Both the position numbers and the translations under genes were made by a program. Positions 3,585 through 11,904 of a DNA stretch of 11,904 bases are shown piece after piece (positions within the stretch are counted from its first letter, which is position 1; each line of letters begins with the position of its first letter). The stretch covers positions 2,137 to 14,040 of the forward strand of contig DAOOON010000012.1 in the NCBI GenBank assembly GCA_035387745.1, in the 5' to 3' direction. This DNA is from an archaeon (GTDB taxonomy: Archaea; Iainarchaeota; Iainarchaeia; Iainarchaeales; CSSED10-239). The notes under the pieces are model-generated. The model was not told the DNA's origin, ran no database searches, and was given only the letters and a program-made list of their open reading frames with translations.

Positions 3585-4538
3585 TTATTTCTTCTTTTTT
3601 CTAGAATATGCTTTTATCTTTGACCATAGAGACAATAAAACAATGCCAGAAACAGCACCTGCCCCAACACCTGCAATATTACCAAATAGTTTAGATTCTT
3701 TCTGCACAAAATTTAGAACTTCTCTTGATTGTCTTGGATTTTTTGAATCTTCGTTATAGATTTCTAAACTTTTTATTACTTCGTTTAATCCTTTAATTAC
3801 TTTAGGGTTATTACCAAATCTTGCAGCAAATTCTTCAACAGATAAACTAGACAAATAATTAATTCTTGCTGTATCGTTTAGTTCTTTCATTTTAAGCGCA
3901 ACTTCTTCAGAGAATTTGTCACTAGTCTTTAATTCTTTTACAATATCTGCATATATATTGTCTAGCTGTGCCTTCTCAGAAGAATATAATTTATCATATA
4001 TGTATCTTAATTTTGCAACGCCTAAATCAAGTTTAGAAATTTTATCTCCATTCCAAAAATATACTTCTTCTGGCTTTGCGTTTTTGTTTAATTCAGTTAC
4101 TTTCTTCTCAATAATTTTATCTAATCTTTCAAAGTTTGCATTTTGTTTTTTTTCTATCTCTGTGGCTTTTTTTACATCCATTTCTAAAGCTACAATTTTA
4201 TTTTGTTTTTCATCATAAAAATATAGTTTTCTTTTAATTTCTTTGTTTTTACTTCTTAACAACTTCTGTGAATATTCTTTTTTTGCATTAGTATTTAATT
4301 CAGTAATTCTTTGACCAACAGATTTAATTTCAGAAAGATAATTGCCTTTTGCCAAAACTATATTTTGGTTTACAATTGATGGTTTAGTTGCAGAATATAC
4401 TTTCTTTCCCACATAATAAGATGGGGCAGCTGCTAGCGTTCCAATAAGTGCACCCATCGCAACTTTCTTTCCTACCTTTTTTGCAGTTATTCCTATTCTA
4501 CTACCAATTGTTGATTTTGGTTTAGGTTTTGGTGACAT
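3585..4538 (-). CDS. Hypothetical protein with N- and C-terminal hydrophobic anchors and a Lys/Glu-rich helical middle
   Basis: 317 aa. Hydrophobic segments at about residues 26-43 (VAMGALIGTLAAAPSYYV) and 287-305 (NIAGVGAGAVSGIVLLSLW), followed by a KKKK tail. The motif [TK]ELN-x-[NT]A[KR] occurs at residues 79, 149 and 219. GAGGGA Shine-Dalgarno-like motif upstream. Confidence 0.7.
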   Translation of the reverse strand: MSPKPKPKSTIGSRIGITAKKVGKKVAMGALIGTLAAAPSYYVGKKVYSATKPSIVNQNIVLAKGNYLSEIKSVGQRITELNTNAKKEYSQKLLRSKNKEIKRKLYFYDEKQNKIVALEMDVKKATEIEKKQNANFERLDKIIEKKVTELNKNAKPEEVYFWNGDKISKLDLGVAKLRYIYDKLYSSEKAQLDNIYADIVKELKTSDKFSEEVALKMKELNDTARINYLSSLSVEEFAARFGNNPKVIKGLNEVIKSLEIYNEDSKNPRQSREVLNFVQKESKLFGNIAGVGAGAVSGIVLLSLWSKIKAYSRKKKK

Positions 4539-4622: not shown

Positions 4623-6110
4623 ATGGCTTTATTAAAAGAGCAAGAAAAACTATCTTTTCTTCTTGAAAAATCAATTGCAAATCTTACAAAAGATAAATCT
4701 AAAAGCTATGGTTTACTTTTCAGTGGCGGTGTTGATTCTTGTCTTCTGGCTCTTCTTTTAAAAAAACAAAAAGCTAAGTTTACTTGTTTTTTTGCATATG
4801 TTAAAGATAATACCGAGGCCAAAGACCTGGCTTTTGCAAAAAAAGCAGCAAAAGAACTTGATTTAAAACTTGAAATAATCTCTGCGGACAGAAAAGAGAT
4901 TTCAACTATTCTTCCTAAGATTATTGATATAATTGATTCTACTAATCCTGTTTCTGTGGGAATTGCAATTCCGATTTATCTCTCTTCTAGAAAAGCAAAA
5001 ACCAAAAAGATTGATACAATTTTTTCAGGTCTTGGTTCTGATGAGCTGTTTGCTGGCTATAGCAGATTTACTACTTATAATCAAAAGACCGAAACAAAAA
5101 AATGCCTTGATAATATTCAAAAGGACAATCTCGATAGAGATGAGGCAATTGTAAAACATTTTAAATTAGCAATTAAATGCCCATATCTTGATAAAGCAGT
5201 TATTGATTATGCTTTAACTTTGCCTCCAAGGCTTTTTATTTCTTCAAAACAAAATAAAATAATTATTCGTAAAATTGCAAAAAACTTAGGGCTCTCTACA
5301 GGGCTTGCAGAAAGAAAAAAACTTGCTTGTCAATACGGTAGTAATTCTGATAGAACACTTAAAAAACTTGCAAAAGCTAAAAAATTTAAAACAAAAAGCG
5401 AATATCTTTCTTCTTTTAAAAAAGAAAAAGTTGGCGTGCTTTTCTCCGGAGGTAAAGACTCTAATCTTTCATTATGGCTTGCACAAAAGGACAGAAAAGA
5501 GATCTCTTGTCTTATCTCTTTAATTCCAGAGAATGTTGACTCCTATATGTTTCAAACACCAGAAGTTAATTTCCTAAAAATGCAGGCTTTTGCTTTAGAT
5601 ATACCTCTTCTTGTTACTAAAACAAAAGGACAAAAAGAAAAAGAACTTGTTGATCTCAGAAAAGCAATAGTTTTTGCTAAAGCAAAATTTGGATTAAATG
5701 GAATTGTTGCTGGAGCTCTTTATAGCAATTATCAAAAGGACAGAATAGAAAAGATCTGTAAAGATCTGAATTTAAAATTGATTGCGCCTCTTTGGCATAT
5801 GAAAGAAGAAGATGAAATAAAATTGCTTTTAGATAATAATTTTAAATTTATTATATGTAAGATTGCTGCTTTTGGTTTTTCTAAAGAAATGCTTGGTAAA
5901 GTAATTGATTACAAAGATTTAGAGGAATTAAAAAAACTAAATAGAAAATACCAAACAAATATTGCAGGAGAAGGGGGAGAATATGAAACTCTTGTTCTTG
6001 ATACTCCGATATTTAAAAAAAGAATTATCATTTTAGAAAGCCAGAAAACCATGCAAAATGAATTTACAGGAAACCTAATTATTAAAAAGATAAAACTAGA
6101 AAAAAAATAA
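4623..6110 (+). CDS. Fusion protein: asparagine-synthetase-like PP-loop domain (N) plus Dph6/MJ0570-type diphthine-ammonia ligase-like PP-loop domain (C)
   Basis: 495 aa. N-terminal half: PP-loop LLFSGGVDSC plus FSGLGSDELFAGY, the hallmark of the AsnB synthetase domain, with no glutaminase domain. C-terminal half (from about residue 268, nt ~5424): second PP-loop VLFSGGKDSN and GEGGEYETLVLD, the signature of the MJ0570/Dph6 ATP-binding family. Confidence 0.85.
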   Translation: MALLKEQEKLSFLLEKSIANLTKDKSKSYGLLFSGGVDSCLLALLLKKQKAKFTCFFAYVKDNTEAKDLAFAKKAAKELDLKLEIISADRKEISTILPKIIDIIDSTNPVSVGIAIPIYLSSRKAKTKKIDTIFSGLGSDELFAGYSRFTTYNQKTETKKCLDNIQKDNLDRDEAIVKHFKLAIKCPYLDKAVIDYALTLPPRLFISSKQNKIIIRKIAKNLGLSTGLAERKKLACQYGSNSDRTLKKLAKAKKFKTKSEYLSSFKKEKVGVLFSGGKDSNLSLWLAQKDRKEISCLISLIPENVDSYMFQTPEVNFLKMQAFALDIPLLVTKTKGQKEKELVDLRKAIVFAKAKFGLNGIVAGALYSNYQKDRIEKICKDLNLKLIAPLWHMKEEDEIKLLLDNNFKFIICKIAAFGFSKEMLGKVIDYKDLEELKKLNRKYQTNIAGEGGEYETLVLDTPIFKKRIIILESQKTMQNEFTGNLIIKKIKLEKK

Positions 6111-7225: not shown

Positions 7226-7576
7226 TTAGATCACAGTTATTGTAACCGTAGTTTCGGTCTTATTGTCTATAACATTATAGTCGTTATTGTGTTCTCCGAC
7301 TCTTATCTTTATTTTTTTTGTTCCGGGATATATACCTACCGCTGGATAAATAGAATATCTTATTTCCTTTACTTGCCCAGGATTAAATTCGCCAATTCTT
7401 TTGTAATCTGTGTTAATTGGCTTAACAGAATTAAAACTTAAATCTTCGTCAATAACTAAATCAATACTTAACATCTTCTTGATCTGGCTATTTGTTAATT
7501 TAATATAAAGCTCTAAAGGCTCTTTACTTTTAGAATCTAATCTATAAGGGTATGTTCTAGTATTTATTCCAATCAT
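7226..7576 (-). CDS. Hypothetical 116-aa protein, predicted beta-rich single domain
   Basis: Alternating hydrophobic/polar beta-strand-like pattern (LELYIKLTN, SIDLVID, VKEIRYSIYP, KKIKIRVGE, TETTVTITVI). No signal peptide or TM segment. GGTGGT Shine-Dalgarno-like motif 7 nt upstream, and a TTTATATT element about 50 nt upstream. Confidence 0.6.
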   Translation of the reverse strand: MIGINTRTYPYRLDSKSKEPLELYIKLTNSQIKKMLSIDLVIDEDLSFNSVKPINTDYKRIGEFNPGQVKEIRYSIYPAVGIYPGTKKIKIRVGEHNNDYNVIDNKTETTVTITVI

Positions 7577-7643
7577 CTTATTACCACCATTTTAATTATA
7601 ATAATACAATAGATAAAAGAAAATATAAATGTTTTCTAGATGG

Positions 7644-7760
7644 TTATTTTTTAAAAAGCTTTTTGAGTTTTGCTTTAGACATCTTTTTAAGACCGTATTT
7701 TTTTAAATGATCTAATTCAAGGGTTTCTAATTTTTCAAGGTATAATTTATTTATATACAT
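7644..7760 (-). CDS. Candidate 38-aa small protein with a helix-extension-helix (SAP/Rho_N-like) motif
   Basis: Below the ORF-track length cutoff. My translation: MYINKLYLEKLETLELDHLKKYGLKKMSKAKLKKLFKK*. The ATG lies 15 nt after the stop of the kinase/dCMP-deaminase gene and is preceded by GTGGGG 3 nt upstream. The pattern L-x-x-L-x-[LV]-x-x-L-[KR]-x-x-G-L-x-x-x-x-K-x-x-L resembles SAP/HeH DNA-binding motifs. Confidence 0.3.
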   Translation of the reverse strand: MYINKLYLEKLETLELDHLKKYGLKKMSKAKLKKLFKK

Positions 7761-7775
7761 ATTCCCCACTCTTTT

Positions 7776-10247: not shown

Positions 10248-10262
10248 ATTTTTTCACTCCTT

Positions 10263-10694
10263 TTATTTTGCAAAACTCTTTCTTCTTGTTGCTCTTCTTT
10301 TCTTATCTCCTTTCTCTCTTATTCTTTCTTTCGGTATTTCTTCTTTAATATAATAATCCATTAATCTTTGATATGCTTCTCTAACCATTTCTATTTTATT
10401 CAAATGATCTTGTATTCTGTTATTTAATAGTATTTTGTTTTTTCTTCCTATTCCTGAATTTTTTATTTTTTCAATAATATCATTTAGTGCTTTATTTAAT
10501 GATTCTATTCTTCTGGCTTTTGATTTTTTTTCATCTATAGTTGTGCTAACATATACTTCACTTAATGTATCCAATATACTTTTTCCTATAAAATCAATCA
10601 TTCTTTCTTGTTCTTTAATATAAACTGTTAATGTTTTTGATTTGTTTTTATTAACTTCTGCTTTTGCTTTCTGAAAATCAATTATCTTTGCCAT
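10263..10694 (-). CDS. Hypothetical helical protein with basic C-terminal tail (paralogue 1 of a tandem pair)
   Basis: 143 aa. Clearly homologous to the adjacent 137-aa ORF: shared GIG-x-(x)-NK motif and KEEIPKER[IL][RK]EKGDKKR near the C-terminus. The start ATG lies 2 nt after the stop of the upstream paralogue. No known family recognised. Confidence 0.75.
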   Translation of the reverse strand: MAKIIDFQKAKAEVNKNKSKTLTVYIKEQERMIDFIGKSILDTLSEVYVSTTIDEKKSKARRIESLNKALNDIIEKIKNSGIGRKNKILLNNRIQDHLNKIEMVREAYQRLMDYYIKEEIPKERIREKGDKKRRATRRKSFAK

Positions 10695-10696
10695 AT

Positions 10697-11110
10697 TTAT
10701 CTTAAATTTGCTTTTCTTTTAATTATTCTTCTAACTTTTCTTTTTTTATCCCCTTTTTCTTTAAGCCTTTCTTTTGGTATTTCTTCTTTAAGATGATAAG
10801 TTAAAGCTTCTTCATAGCCTTGTCTTGTTGCATTAACTTTTTTTAACTCAAAACTAATTTTTTCAAGTAATTTTCTTTTATTTCTATCACCAATACCTGC
10901 GCCTTGTATTTTTTTTGTAAGGGCATCTAAAGATTTACCTAAAAAAACTAAATAATCTAGTTGCTTTTTTATTTCTTTTTCTGTTTGAGCACTCAATAAA
11001 TCTTTTAGCCCTCTTTGCATAGATTTTGAGATAGTTTCAATATCTTTTTCGCGTTCGCGGATATATTCTGCTAATGTTTTTGCCAAATCTTTCACCTTTT
11101 TATTTTGCAA
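10697..11110 (-). CDS. Hypothetical helical protein with basic C-terminal tail (paralogue 2 of a tandem pair)
   Basis: The ORF-track start at 11108-11110 is TTG, not ATG, and overlaps the upstream gene by 11 nt. A more plausible start is the in-frame TTG at 11084-11086. It lies 5 nt after a GGTGA motif and gives an N-terminus (M)AKTLAEYI..., parallel to MAKIIDF... of paralogue 1. The coding call is supported by paralogy. Confidence 0.75.
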   Translation of the reverse strand: MQNKKVKDLAKTLAEYIREREKDIETISKSMQRGLKDLLSAQTEKEIKKQLDYLVFLGKSLDALTKKIQGAGIGDRNKRKLLEKISFELKKVNATRQGYEEALTYHLKEEIPKERLKEKGDKKRKVRRIIKRKANLR

Positions 11111-11750
11111 TAGATTTTCTTACTGTTCTTTTTTTGTATAATTCTTGCTTTCTTATTATCTTTCTATCCAAATATGTTGGTTTTGCTTCTCTGTCTGCAA
11201 AGGTATTATTAATACTATAATTAAAAAGAATATTTTTTTTCTTAACATTAAATCCTTTTTTAATTAATTTCTCATTTGCATATCCTAACCAAGCCGAAAC
11301 ACAAGCATTTCCATATTCTCCAAAGGAAGAAATTTTTAAATCCTTATTTAGTTTTGAATATAATGCTGGTTTTATATATTCTGTGTGGCCTGCATATTCT
11401 GGATGAAAATCAGTTACAACTGCCCTTTCTCCAAGTGTTTCCTTTGAGTGCTCAATTAGCTGTTTTATGACTTTATTATAAGCTGCAACAGGTTCTTTAC
11501 CACTAAATTTATCCTCTTCTGCCGGGAGAACCATAACAAATAATGCAGTAGGTCTTTTTTCTTTAATAACATTAATTGCTCTTTTATATGCTTTTAATGT
11601 AGTGTTAATAGCAATCAATTCATCTTTGTTATTGTTTATGTGATTTAAAAGATCTTGGTGTGTTCTAAATTTTATACCATAATCTCTTGCGAAAAATGTA
11701 TCAAACAATGGATGAACTAACTGTATTATTTCAGTATATTTTTGAGTCAT
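11100..11750 (-). CDS. Hypothetical alpha/beta protein with basic C-terminal tail, with a possible distant isochorismatase/cysteine-hydrolase-like signature
   Basis: 216 aa. Alternating beta/alpha pattern (EIIQLVHP, ALFVMVLPA, RAVVTDF, LKISSFGE, NILFNYS). The segment LKISSFGEYGNACVSAWLGYANEKLIKKGFNV resembles the G-x(5)-C-V nucleophile-helix region of isochorismatase-like hydrolases. The tail KKRTVRKSIAK resembles the tail of paralogue 1. The start ATG overlaps the glyA stop (ATGA). Confidence 0.7.
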   Translation of the reverse strand: MTQKYTEIIQLVHPLFDTFFARDYGIKFRTHQDLLNHINNNKDELIAINTTLKAYKRAINVIKEKRPTALFVMVLPAEEDKFSGKEPVAAYNKVIKQLIEHSKETLGERAVVTDFHPEYAGHTEYIKPALYSKLNKDLKISSFGEYGNACVSAWLGYANEKLIKKGFNVKKKNILFNYSINNTFADREAKPTYLDRKIIRKQELYKKRTVRKSIAK

Positions 11751-11904
11751 ATTTTATCTATTGGATATGCTTTTAACATTTCAATTACTTTTACTTTTAG
11801 ATTTACTTTTAACTCTTGGTTTTCTGGTTTCGAAATTACTTGATTAATATAATCTGCAATGACTTTTATTTGCTGTTCTTTAAAGCCACGGGTGGTTATT
11901 GCGG
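11747..11904 (-). CDS. glyA: Serine hydroxymethyltransferase, 3' end only (5' part outside the window)
   Basis: Not in the ORF track (edge fragment). My translation of the minus strand from 11902: AITTRGFKEQQIKVIADYINQVISKPENQELKVNLKVKVIEMLKAYPIDKI*. The (GTP)AITTRGFKE motif, followed by a regulatory helix and a short C-terminus ending in 'YP', is characteristic of the SHMT C-terminus. The TGA stop at 11747-11749 overlaps the next ATG. Confidence 0.8.
   Translation of the reverse strand, partial: AITTRGFKEQQIKVIADYINQVISKPENQELKVNLKVKVIEMLKAYPIDKI

Follow-up and report, generated by a model that had tools for sequence, protein, structure and literature searches.

Three unassigned genes inside an archaeal thymidylate-cycle operon: one accessory module or two unrelated families?

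Introduction

Thymidylate synthesis is among the best-understood pathways, and unknown conserved components are not expected in its operons. The 11,904-nucleotide (nt) stretch of DNA analysed here, hereafter the window, raises the question of what such components might be: three tightly packed open reading frames (ORFs) of 216, 137 and 143 amino acids (aa) lie between glyA, encoding serine hydroxymethyltransferase (SHMT), and the genes for thymidylate synthase (TS; thyA), dihydrofolate reductase (DHFR; folA) and a kinase-deaminase fusion. An earlier interpretation, hereafter the sequence-only reading, had suggested that the three ORFs are uncharacterised genes of an accessory module of thymidylate and folate metabolism. 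We tentatively favour a different answer, with a probability of about 0.42 for the reading as a whole, according to which the ORFs represent two unrelated, undescribed families with different relations to the operon rather than one three-gene module. The 137- and 143-aa ORFs belong to a small basic family whose gene is a fixed, apparently TS-coupled operon component of this clade, whereas the 216-aa gene is a dispensable cassette from a wider archaeal family. Coordinates refer to the window unless a related locus is named; numbers such as L003, L006 and L040 denote the related loci that were compared.

Results

A small gene directly ahead of thymidylate synthase

At every locus with readable context (the window, L003, L010, L012, L014, L015/16, L022 and L040), a small-family gene is the immediate 5′ neighbour of the TS gene. 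This position persists through the insertion of tmk, the insertion of a 216-family gene, duplication, and the replacement of thyA and folA by thyX (gene orders in Table 1). The replacement is found in L014, whose flanking genes place it nearer to the window organism than any other relative compared (EF-2 98% identical). There, a thyX gene encoding 505 aa (L014:7443-8960; Thy1, E = 1e-45) replaces thyA and folA in situ with the small gene kept 5′ of it, so that the association between small gene and TS survives a non-homologous enzyme swap; the missing folA fits ThyX not needing DHFR. The ThyX of the distant archaeon represented by L018 (L018:2444-3988) comprises 514 aa, and each of the two ThyX proteins contains two Thy1-matching stretches. 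The small-family loci share one syntenic neighbourhood of approximately 20 kb, and the linkage is thus a single retained ancestral arrangement rather than the outcome of many independent associations.

In L003, L010, L012, L014 and L022, the stop codon of the small gene lies 1 nt from the ATG of the TS gene. The last codons of the small gene in these lineages (ACA AGG AGA AAT GTG AGA) contain an AGGAG and a GTGA element, the latter 6 nt from the TS start. GTG accounts for 5.4% of the Val codons and AGG for 7.6% of the Arg codons in these genomes; at the junction, GTG is used in 8/8 cases and AGG in 6/8. This bias points to a constraint at the nucleotide level, for which a TS ribosome-binding site embedded in the small ORF appears to be the best explanation. 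RNA folding predicted neither a conserved secondary structure nor a sequestering hairpin at the junction. In the window lineage, the Shine-Dalgarno sequence of thyA has moved into the 15-nt spacer, whereas most other lineages carry the equivalent inside the last codons of the small gene.

We hypothesise a coupling in which (i) the AGGAG and GTGA elements within the small gene serve as the Shine-Dalgarno sequence of TS; (ii) TS would be translated by termination-reinitiation, in a fixed ratio to the small protein; and (iii) the small protein would not be an enzyme of the cycle, acting instead as a nucleic-acid-binding partner or regulator that ties the expression or location of TS to RNA or DNA. 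A stronger version, in which the small protein is an obligate, stoichiometric partner of thymidylate synthesis whose Arg/Lys tail binds its own mRNA or DNA and thereby autoregulates or localises dTMP production, whether by ThyA or by ThyX, appears rather improbable.

The 137- and 143-aa ORFs as members of one basic three-helix family

The 137- and 143-aa ORFs are tandem paralogues (40% identity over 122 residues, E = 8e-27, BLASTP), and the three ORFs therefore comprise two families, not three. A word-indexed profile search of 5.8 billion proteins yielded 17 members of the small family, all from archaeal metagenomes. Their alignment displays the N-terminal peptide MAKIIDFQxAK (MAKIIDFQKAK in the 143-aa ORF, absent from the 137-aa copy of the window), a YI[KR]EQExxID block, an AGIGxx[DN]KxxL turn and the Arg/Lys tail KDKKRKAIRxNTRRNVR, which in the window takes the form ...RRKSFAK; the 143-aa ORF ends in the Arg/Lys tail ...KKRRATRRKSFAK. 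The proteins have an isoelectric point (pI) of about 10 and carry 12-14 Lys and Arg residues (K+R) among their last 25 residues, compared with 4.4 in background ORFs from the same loci; for the 137-aa ORF, the values are pI 10.1 and 14 K+R. AlphaFold predicts a three-helix bundle at approximately residues 22-118, with a predicted local distance difference test score (pLDDT) of 79 overall, about 90 in the core and lower confidence at the termini, and Foldseek retrieved generic helical bundles only (E ≥ 0.09). Together, these properties describe a clade-restricted, very basic three-helix bundle with an Arg/Lys-rich tail.

The family divides into type A and type B (each with 100/100 bootstrap support) and an sm143 group, any of which can be the sole copy in a genome. 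The 137-aa ORF of the window falls in the type-B clade (100/100), and the 143-aa orthologue of L040, the sole copy there, is 90% identical. Pfam scans of all small-family members gave nothing consistent. The all-α nucleoside triphosphate pyrophosphohydrolases of the MazG/dimeric dUTPase type, which carry an acidic motif of the EExxE...ExxD type, were rejected as relatives: no Pfam match was obtained for the 14 members, none appeared among the top 50 Foldseek hits in either library, and no acidic motif was seen by eye in the alignment.

A wider archaeal family for the 216-aa ORF

For the 216-aa protein, a word-indexed search gave 4 relatives, and an exhaustive hidden Markov model (HMM) search gave 80 cluster representatives at E ≤ 1e-3, with 55 at E ≤ 1e-10. 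Most members have 200-260 aa, and most end in a basic tail (9.7 K+R in the last 25 residues). Across 61 members, H13-P14 (in the motif LVHP, just after β1), G144-E145 (FGEY, at the end of β4) and C150-V151 (at a helix N-terminus) are invariant, and Y55, P76 and L162 are nearly so. The AlphaFold model (pLDDT 68, predicted template modelling score 0.67) consists of five β-strands alternating with helices in a Rossmann-like α/β arrangement, with C150 at the start of helix 148-164, following strand 134-144. Its top Foldseek hit, 2b34, is not significant (E = 0.019, template modelling (TM) score 0.33), and the family matched neither Pfam (61 members) nor PDB sequences. The 216-aa ORF is a member of a wider archaeal α/β family with an invariant His/Glu/Cys constellation and a basic tail. 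The protein might be a Cys/His-dependent or metal-dependent ligand-binding or catalytic domain that is tethered to nucleic acid by its tail, and the family would then serve DNA-precursor and DNA-transaction operons generally, not the thymidylate cycle specifically.

Two known enzyme families were considered for the 216-aa protein and rejected. For isochorismatase-like cysteine hydrolases (PF00857), the 61-sequence profile aligned with E. coli EntB, PncA and RutB at an hhalign probability of 0.6% (controls 0.1-1.0%), and in place of the Asp-Lys-Cys triad the invariant residues are H13, E145 and C150. Nucleoside 2-deoxyribosyltransferase (NDT)/DNPH1 (PF05014) was suggested by a resemblance to the 'AGPLF' and catalytic-Glu motifs of NDT; the profile test was negative, with a probability of 0.1% against eight annotated phage NDTs and the motifs not aligned. 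A tail module common to both families was likewise discarded: an HMM of the small-family tail scored ≤5.9 bits on 216-family tails, and the two kinds of tail have nothing in common beyond their overall basicity and a weak Φ-[AV]-[KR] terminus.

In five lineages (the window, L021, L022, L018 and L010), glyA has a family member as its direct neighbour, and further members adjoin genes of other functions (Table 1). Three subfamilies keep to particular sites: one follows glyA, one lies between top6B and top6A, and one comes after a PAC2-family gene (with HerA next in line where the contig is long enough). The neighbour-joining tree recovers these contexts as separate clades (glyA-downstream 93/100, top6 99/100, PAC2 100/100), with the copy of L018 falling outside the glyA clade, and one metagenome-assembled genome (MAG; locus-tag prefix WCX82) holds at least 3 paralogues. 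One subclade (L001:8347-10194; L028, L030) follows a 355-aa RelA/SpoT-domain gene (PF04607, 3e-19) at a gap of approximately 108 nt, an adjacency that hints at a nucleotide-signalling link for that paralogue.

A variable slot after glyA

L040 lacks positions 10009-11050 of L006, which correspond to the 1,042-nt block of the window listed in Table 1, and the difference is a clean indel. The window lineage and L040 are 81-90% identical over the 3′ half of glyA but 95-100% identical beyond a point about 100 nt inside the 143-aa gene, and the synonymous divergence (dS) drops across the slot from 0.40-0.48 to 0.05-0.12. A second pair, L022 and L012, is approximately 97-99% identical over 7 kb and differs by a 648-nt block that is exactly the 216-family gene; here, identity falls to 86-92% over the last ~800 nt of glyA. 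Most relatives that keep the small gene (L003, L012, L014, L015 and L040) lack the 216-aa gene, and the slot after glyA is either empty or occupied by a 216-family gene alone, by such a gene together with a second small gene, or by tmk. The slot is a recombination-active variable site, and the 216-aa gene is a dispensable cassette within it, present or absent between close relatives. We propose that it is gained or lost by homologous recombination.

Could the 216-aa gene instead be a selfish, homing-type cassette, resembling a freestanding endonuclease gene, inserting at the boundaries of highly conserved DNA-metabolism genes and spreading by recombination that co-converts the flanks, with the small genes as unrelated residents? 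Both presence/absence polymorphisms are independent, clean and located exactly at gene boundaries, both come with a divergent tract in the neighbouring 3′ portion of glyA against 95-100% identity elsewhere in the locus, and dS is discontinuous across the slot. The family is also multi-copy, basic-tailed and fast-evolving, with subfamilies tied to the conserved targets glyA, top6B/top6A and PAC2/HerA. A fixed site that is filled only sporadically and bordered by divergent tracts towards glyA is what homing would leave behind. However, ordinary homologous recombination between strains gives the same mosaic without a nuclease. Moreover, no homing-endonuclease family or nuclease domain (GIY-YIG, HNH, LAGLIDADG, PD-(D/E)xK, EDxHD) was matched in Pfam, PADLOC or PHROGs, the predicted Rossmann-like α/β fold is unlike known homing-endonuclease folds, IMG/VR viral contigs contained no members of either family, and the context-specific clades, at 33-43% identity, look vertically inherited. 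We consider a homing cassette unlikely.

The block missing from L040 comprises two genes, and the adjacent kinase-deaminase resembles the architecture of anti-phage dCTP deaminases, both of which would suit a toxin-antitoxin or defence cassette that landed in the operon. Yet neither family has a match in PADLOC, Pfam or PHROGs or a representative in viral contigs, the 216-aa and small genes each commonly occur alone with no obligate pairing, and the small gene is fixed in the clade rather than sporadic. Such an origin, named by the sequence-only reading as the alternative that would refute it, finds no family-level support and is highly improbable.

The ratio of nonsynonymous to synonymous substitution rates (dN/dS) is 0.20 for the 216-aa gene, 0.18 for the 137-aa gene and 0.38 for the 143-aa gene, compared with 0.05-0.17 for glyA, thyA, folA and p319, a gene directly upstream of glyA. 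Identity to the window across lineages ranges from 56 to 98% for flanking proteins, from 25 to 50% for the small proteins (71% for one orthologue) and from 26 to 75% for the 216-aa protein. With dN/dS below 1 yet far faster evolution than their neighbours, the three genes are real and under purifying selection, but loosely constrained.

This relaxed selection would also be expected if the three genes were hitch-hikers, that is, lineage-specific orphans lodged in the conserved gene array of a compact genome, whose adjacency carries no functional information. The shared ~20-kb synteny reduces the linkage to a single historical event, and many other neighbours are tightly packed as well, several of them without known function (p319, p116 and a 317-aa ORF, described below). 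What argues against mere hitch-hiking is that local rearrangements of at least four kinds, among them the exchange of the TS gene itself, have left the small gene exactly in place, and that 216 subfamilies keep specific operon positions across deep divergence. Furthermore, TS expression would be at least mechanistically tied to the small gene, because the ribosome-binding site of TS appears to be written into its codons. Hitch-hiking is in our view unlikely, and we retain the reading of two families with different relations to the operon.

Locus structure and host

The gene order and junctions described in the sequence-only reading, from glyA to the kinase-deaminase fusion, agree with the ORF list and with the DNA, and its four recognisable enzymes are confirmed, thyA, folA and the fusion by Pfam and SHMT by the full-length glyA of the parent contig (Table 1). 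The glyA stop codon overlaps the start of the 216-aa ORF as ATGA. With TTG 11110 as its start, the 137-aa ORF overlaps the 216-aa ORF by 11 nt; with TTG 11086, a gap of 13 nt separates the two. The latter start, giving a product of 129 aa, is the most likely one, because a GGTGA element lies 5 nt upstream of it and the NCBI record calls the same start. The following 137-aa/143-aa gap of 2 nt has no Shine-Dalgarno sequence and is a pure reinitiation-type junction. A 15-nt spacer separates the 143-aa ORF from thyA, 21 nt separate thyA from folA, and folA abuts the fusion gene with a gap of 0 nt. The three ORFs are real, selected and presumably co-transcribed protein genes.

Also borne out is that the three ORFs fit no family that can be named: neither single-sequence nor profile searches of Pfam, PHROGs, NCBIfam, PADLOC and PDB sequences rose above noise, and literature searches returned nothing on these genes. 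No Rfam families or tRNAs were detected in the window, whose G+C content is 23-35%. Identical or near-identical contigs occur in archaeal MAGs (e.g. GCA_964645375.1), and genes for RNA polymerase, L7Ae, S12, S7 and EF-2 lie upstream in the parent contigs. The host is a small-genome archaeon, probably of DPANN type.

Table 1. Features of the window and gene contexts of the related loci (positions without a locus number refer to the window)
Feature or locus	Position	Strand	Identification or context
glyA (serine hydroxymethyltransferase), 3′ end	11747..11904	(-)	translation; full-length 405-aa SHMT (PF00464) in identical parent contigs
216-aa ORF	11100..11750	(-)	ORF list; member of undescribed α/β family, pI 9.7, basic C-terminal tail
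137-aa ORF	10697..11110	(-)	type-B paralogue of small basic family, predicted three-helix bundle
143-aa ORF	10263..10694	(-)	second small-family paralogue; gene directly 5′ of thyA
thyA, thymidylate synthase, 288 aa	9381..10247	(-)	PF00303 (Thymidylat_synt), E = 4e-96
folA, dihydrofolate reductase, 161 aa	8874..9359	(-)	PF00186 (DHFR_1), E = 5e-50
P-loop kinase-like + dCMP/dCTP deaminase fusion, 365 aa	7776..8873	(-)	PF13238 (AAA_18) + PF00383 (dCMP_cyt_deam_1)
GGTGA, Shine-Dalgarno-like element	11092..11096	(-)	read from DNA; 5 nt upstream of TTG 11086
AAGGAGTGA, Shine-Dalgarno for thyA	10254..10262	(-)	inside 15-nt spacer, 6 nt from ATG
Presence/absence block, 1,042 nt (216-aa gene + 137-aa paralogue)	10701..11742	(-)	pairwise alignment of L006 and L040
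L003, L012, L040			glyA, small, thyA, folA
L010			glyA, small, small, thyA; 216-family member upstream of glyA (hhalign 99.9%)
L014			glyA, small, thyX, kinase-deaminase; locus without folA
L015/L016			glyA, tmk, small, small, thyA
L018 (different archaeon)			glyA, 216-family member, thyX; 27% identity to window 216-aa protein
L021			glyA-flanking 216-family member, 75% identity to window 216-aa protein
L022			glyA, 216-family gene, small, thyA; glyA-flanking member with 40% identity to window 216-aa protein
L029 (tandem pair)	L029:2388-6826		216-family genes between top6B and top6A; junctions 8-54 nt
L032	L032:3186-6886		216-family gene between top6B and top6A; junctions 8-54 nt
L023			216-family gene between PAC2 and HerA
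L033			eIF2α and PAC2 upstream; contig ends within 216-family gene
L034			216-family gene upstream of DUF87 ATPase gene
L001			216-family gene after RelA/SpoT
Several loci			216-family gene adjoining HIT, ABC-transporter, MFS, β-CASP or membrane-protein genes

Neighbouring genes

The p319 gene (L006:7819-8778), directly upstream of glyA and just past the right end of the window, encodes a conserved 319-aa protein that heads the operon in most lineages and matched neither Pfam nor PDB. The N-terminus of this protein, IVICGPDMSGTSTQ, is similar to the P-loop of thymidylate kinase, IVIDGTDGTGKHTQ, except that the Lys is missing, and p319 is absent from L015 and L021, the two loci with a canonical tmk. 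The gene may encode a kinase-like protein that has diverged or been inactivated; homology to thymidylate kinase was rejected, given that hhalign aligns the P-loop regions at a probability of only 1.8%.

The kinase-deaminase fusion has the two-domain architecture of anti-phage dCTP deaminases (AvcD-like; PADLOC dCTPase, 1.7e-47) and scores 104 bits against the NCBIfam anti-phage dCTP deaminase model, compared with a cutoff of 400. Its operon context suggests a cellular relative of the defence enzyme with a housekeeping role in dUMP supply. Downstream of the fusion, strains vary (window 7577-7775; L006:12889-14442, L007:12889-14442, L008:12878-14107): some have a separate gene of approximately 152-159 aa, one record has a 517-aa fused product, and the window has a 38-aa remnant. 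Another recurrent companion is p116, a 116-aa ORF (window 7226-7576, (-)) downstream of the operon with 68-88% identity across lineages, whose 52% identical counterpart in the distant archaeon of L018 immediately precedes glyA. Further away, window 4623-6110 (+) encodes a 495-aa protein with Asn_synthase-type and diphthamide-synthase (Diphthami_syn_2) domains, a fusion conserved across all related loci, and window 3585-4538 (-) contains a 317-aa Lys-rich ORF that has no recorded Pfam family, ends in KKKK and probably has a hydrophobic segment in its C-terminal part.

Discussion

The question posed by the locus was whether the three genes form one accessory module of the thymidylate/folate cycle, with the 216-aa protein as a missing hydrolase or salvage enzyme and the small proteins as scaffolds of a ThyA-DHFR-SHMT metabolon. 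The tight junctions inside the operon, the constant adjacency of a small gene and TS, the five lineages with a 216-family member next to glyA (including the distant archaeon with the order glyA, family member, thyX) and the occupation of the variable slot by a genuine pathway gene, tmk, in one lineage would all fit such a module. Nevertheless, the 216-aa gene is found without the small genes and they without it, it is dispensable between relatives that are ~97-99% identical, and its paralogues have topoisomerase VI, HerA, RelA/SpoT, HIT and transporter genes as neighbours. The enzymes that the two families would need to fit also evolve far more slowly than either of them. A scaffold that specifically binds TS is further argued against because the small protein is kept with the structurally unrelated enzymes ThyA and ThyX. 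A single module thus appears quite unlikely to us.

The case for guilt by association made in the sequence-only reading consequently divides between the two families. All three genes proved genuine (conserved, with dN/dS below 1), but the paralogy of the 137- and 143-aa ORFs leaves two families. The association stands for the small proteins, which lie between glyA and TS in every readable lineage, and not for the 216-aa gene with its independent, scattered contexts. In the neighbourhood survey, homologues recurred between glyA and thyA/folA in the case of the small genes, within one clade, whereas the 216-aa gene was missing from most relatives. The scatter across unrelated contexts that the same reading regarded as contrary evidence was partly found for the 216-aa gene, because its paralogues occur at top6, PAC2/HerA, RelA/SpoT, HIT and ABC-transporter genes; set against this scatter are the five lineages in which a member directly flanks glyA. 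The enzymatic, salvage or scaffold roles suggested for the genes could not be shown.

Several points weigh against the two-family reading favoured here. No homology to a characterised protein backs nucleic-acid binding or catalysis for either family, and the basicity of the tails partly reflects the base composition of AT-rich genomes. The embedded ribosome-binding site, rather than protein function, explains some of the conservation of the small-protein tail. The adjacency to TS could have been inherited within one syntenic clade and then entrenched by this site without a functional link, and the coupling is looser in the window lineage, because the thyA Shine-Dalgarno sequence sits there in the 15-nt spacer. 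As for the 216-aa protein, its model is only of moderate confidence (pLDDT 68), its His, Glu and Cys may not lie close together in space, and the five glyA-flanking lineages leave room for an SHMT- or thymidylate-specific role of that subfamily.

On the reading that we favour, a genome-reduced archaeal clade keeps a dedicated small basic protein directly ahead of TS, whichever TS type is present, and in most lineages the two are probably coupled in translation. If this protein regulates or localises dTMP synthesis, it would add a new layer of control to the supply of DNA precursors in archaea that rely on their hosts for nucleotides and folate; as a tethering or control factor, it would represent a previously unknown kind of control of DNA-precursor synthesis in prokaryotes. 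The 216 family, with approximately 80 clusters outside Pfam coverage, offers in its invariant His/Glu/Cys a testable candidate active site. It seems to represent an accessory factor of archaeal DNA metabolism that has gone unrecognised or, alternatively, a selfish cassette of a new type; in both cases, a block of proteins in DPANN genomes would cease to be unannotated. The two families have no characterised relatives, and orphan genes are common in such genomes.

Comparison with known systems

In the eukaryotic nuclear dTMP-synthesis complex and the dNTP-synthetase complex of phage T4, SHMT, TS and DHFR are co-organised, possibly near DNA. The basic proteins co-expressed with the cycle here might be likened to these complexes as a concept only, with no homology involved.

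For the 216 family, the closest structural likeness is to isochorismatase-like cysteine hydrolases (PncA, EntB, RutB, ISOC/'MAR1'). The predicted model may share their three-layer α/β architecture, and in both families a conserved Cys, placed at the N-terminus of a helix, follows a strand-ending Gly by six residues (G-x5-C-V). The Foldseek list is topped by 2b34, with a cysteine hydrolase and a nicotinamidase lower down, all non-significant, and the best local hhalign segment falls on the Cys motif of the family. In contrast to these hydrolases, the 216 family has a His in place of the catalytic Asp; no Lys is invariant in it, nor is any Asp at the end of β1. Its genomic behaviour recalls the freestanding homing endonuclease genes seg and mob of T4-like phages, which lie between conserved nucleotide-metabolism and topoisomerase genes. 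Likewise, the 216-family gene is intergenic between conserved nucleotide- and DNA-metabolism genes, is present or absent between close relatives and is accompanied by a divergent tract in the adjacent conserved gene. It differs in having no recognised nuclease motif or fold, in its archaeal rather than viral host and in subfamilies that look vertically inherited.

In size (~130-150 aa), high basicity and predicted helical-bundle fold, the small family might be likened to the four-helix-bundle Avd and 23S-rRNA-intervening-sequence proteins (IVPs; PF05635) and to other small basic helical nucleic-acid binders, and members of the Avd/IVP superfamily are among its weak, non-significant Foldseek hits in both libraries (2rld; Avd-like; E = 0.09-0.6, TM = 0.34-0.41). 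It differs from them in lacking a Pfam match and in having no reverse transcriptase or diversity-generating retroelement nearby. Its junction with TS can be compared with translationally coupled genes such as those of the ribosomal-protein and trp operons, where termination-reinitiation uses a downstream Shine-Dalgarno sequence located within the upstream ORF: the small-gene stop lies 1-2 nt from the next start, and its last codons contain the Shine-Dalgarno-like AGGAG...GTGA in rare codons, with no sequestering hairpin predicted. Unlike in these operons, the putative coupling here would join an essential enzyme gene to a lineage-specific orphan ORF in front of it, and the small gene is kept across a non-homologous swap of TS.

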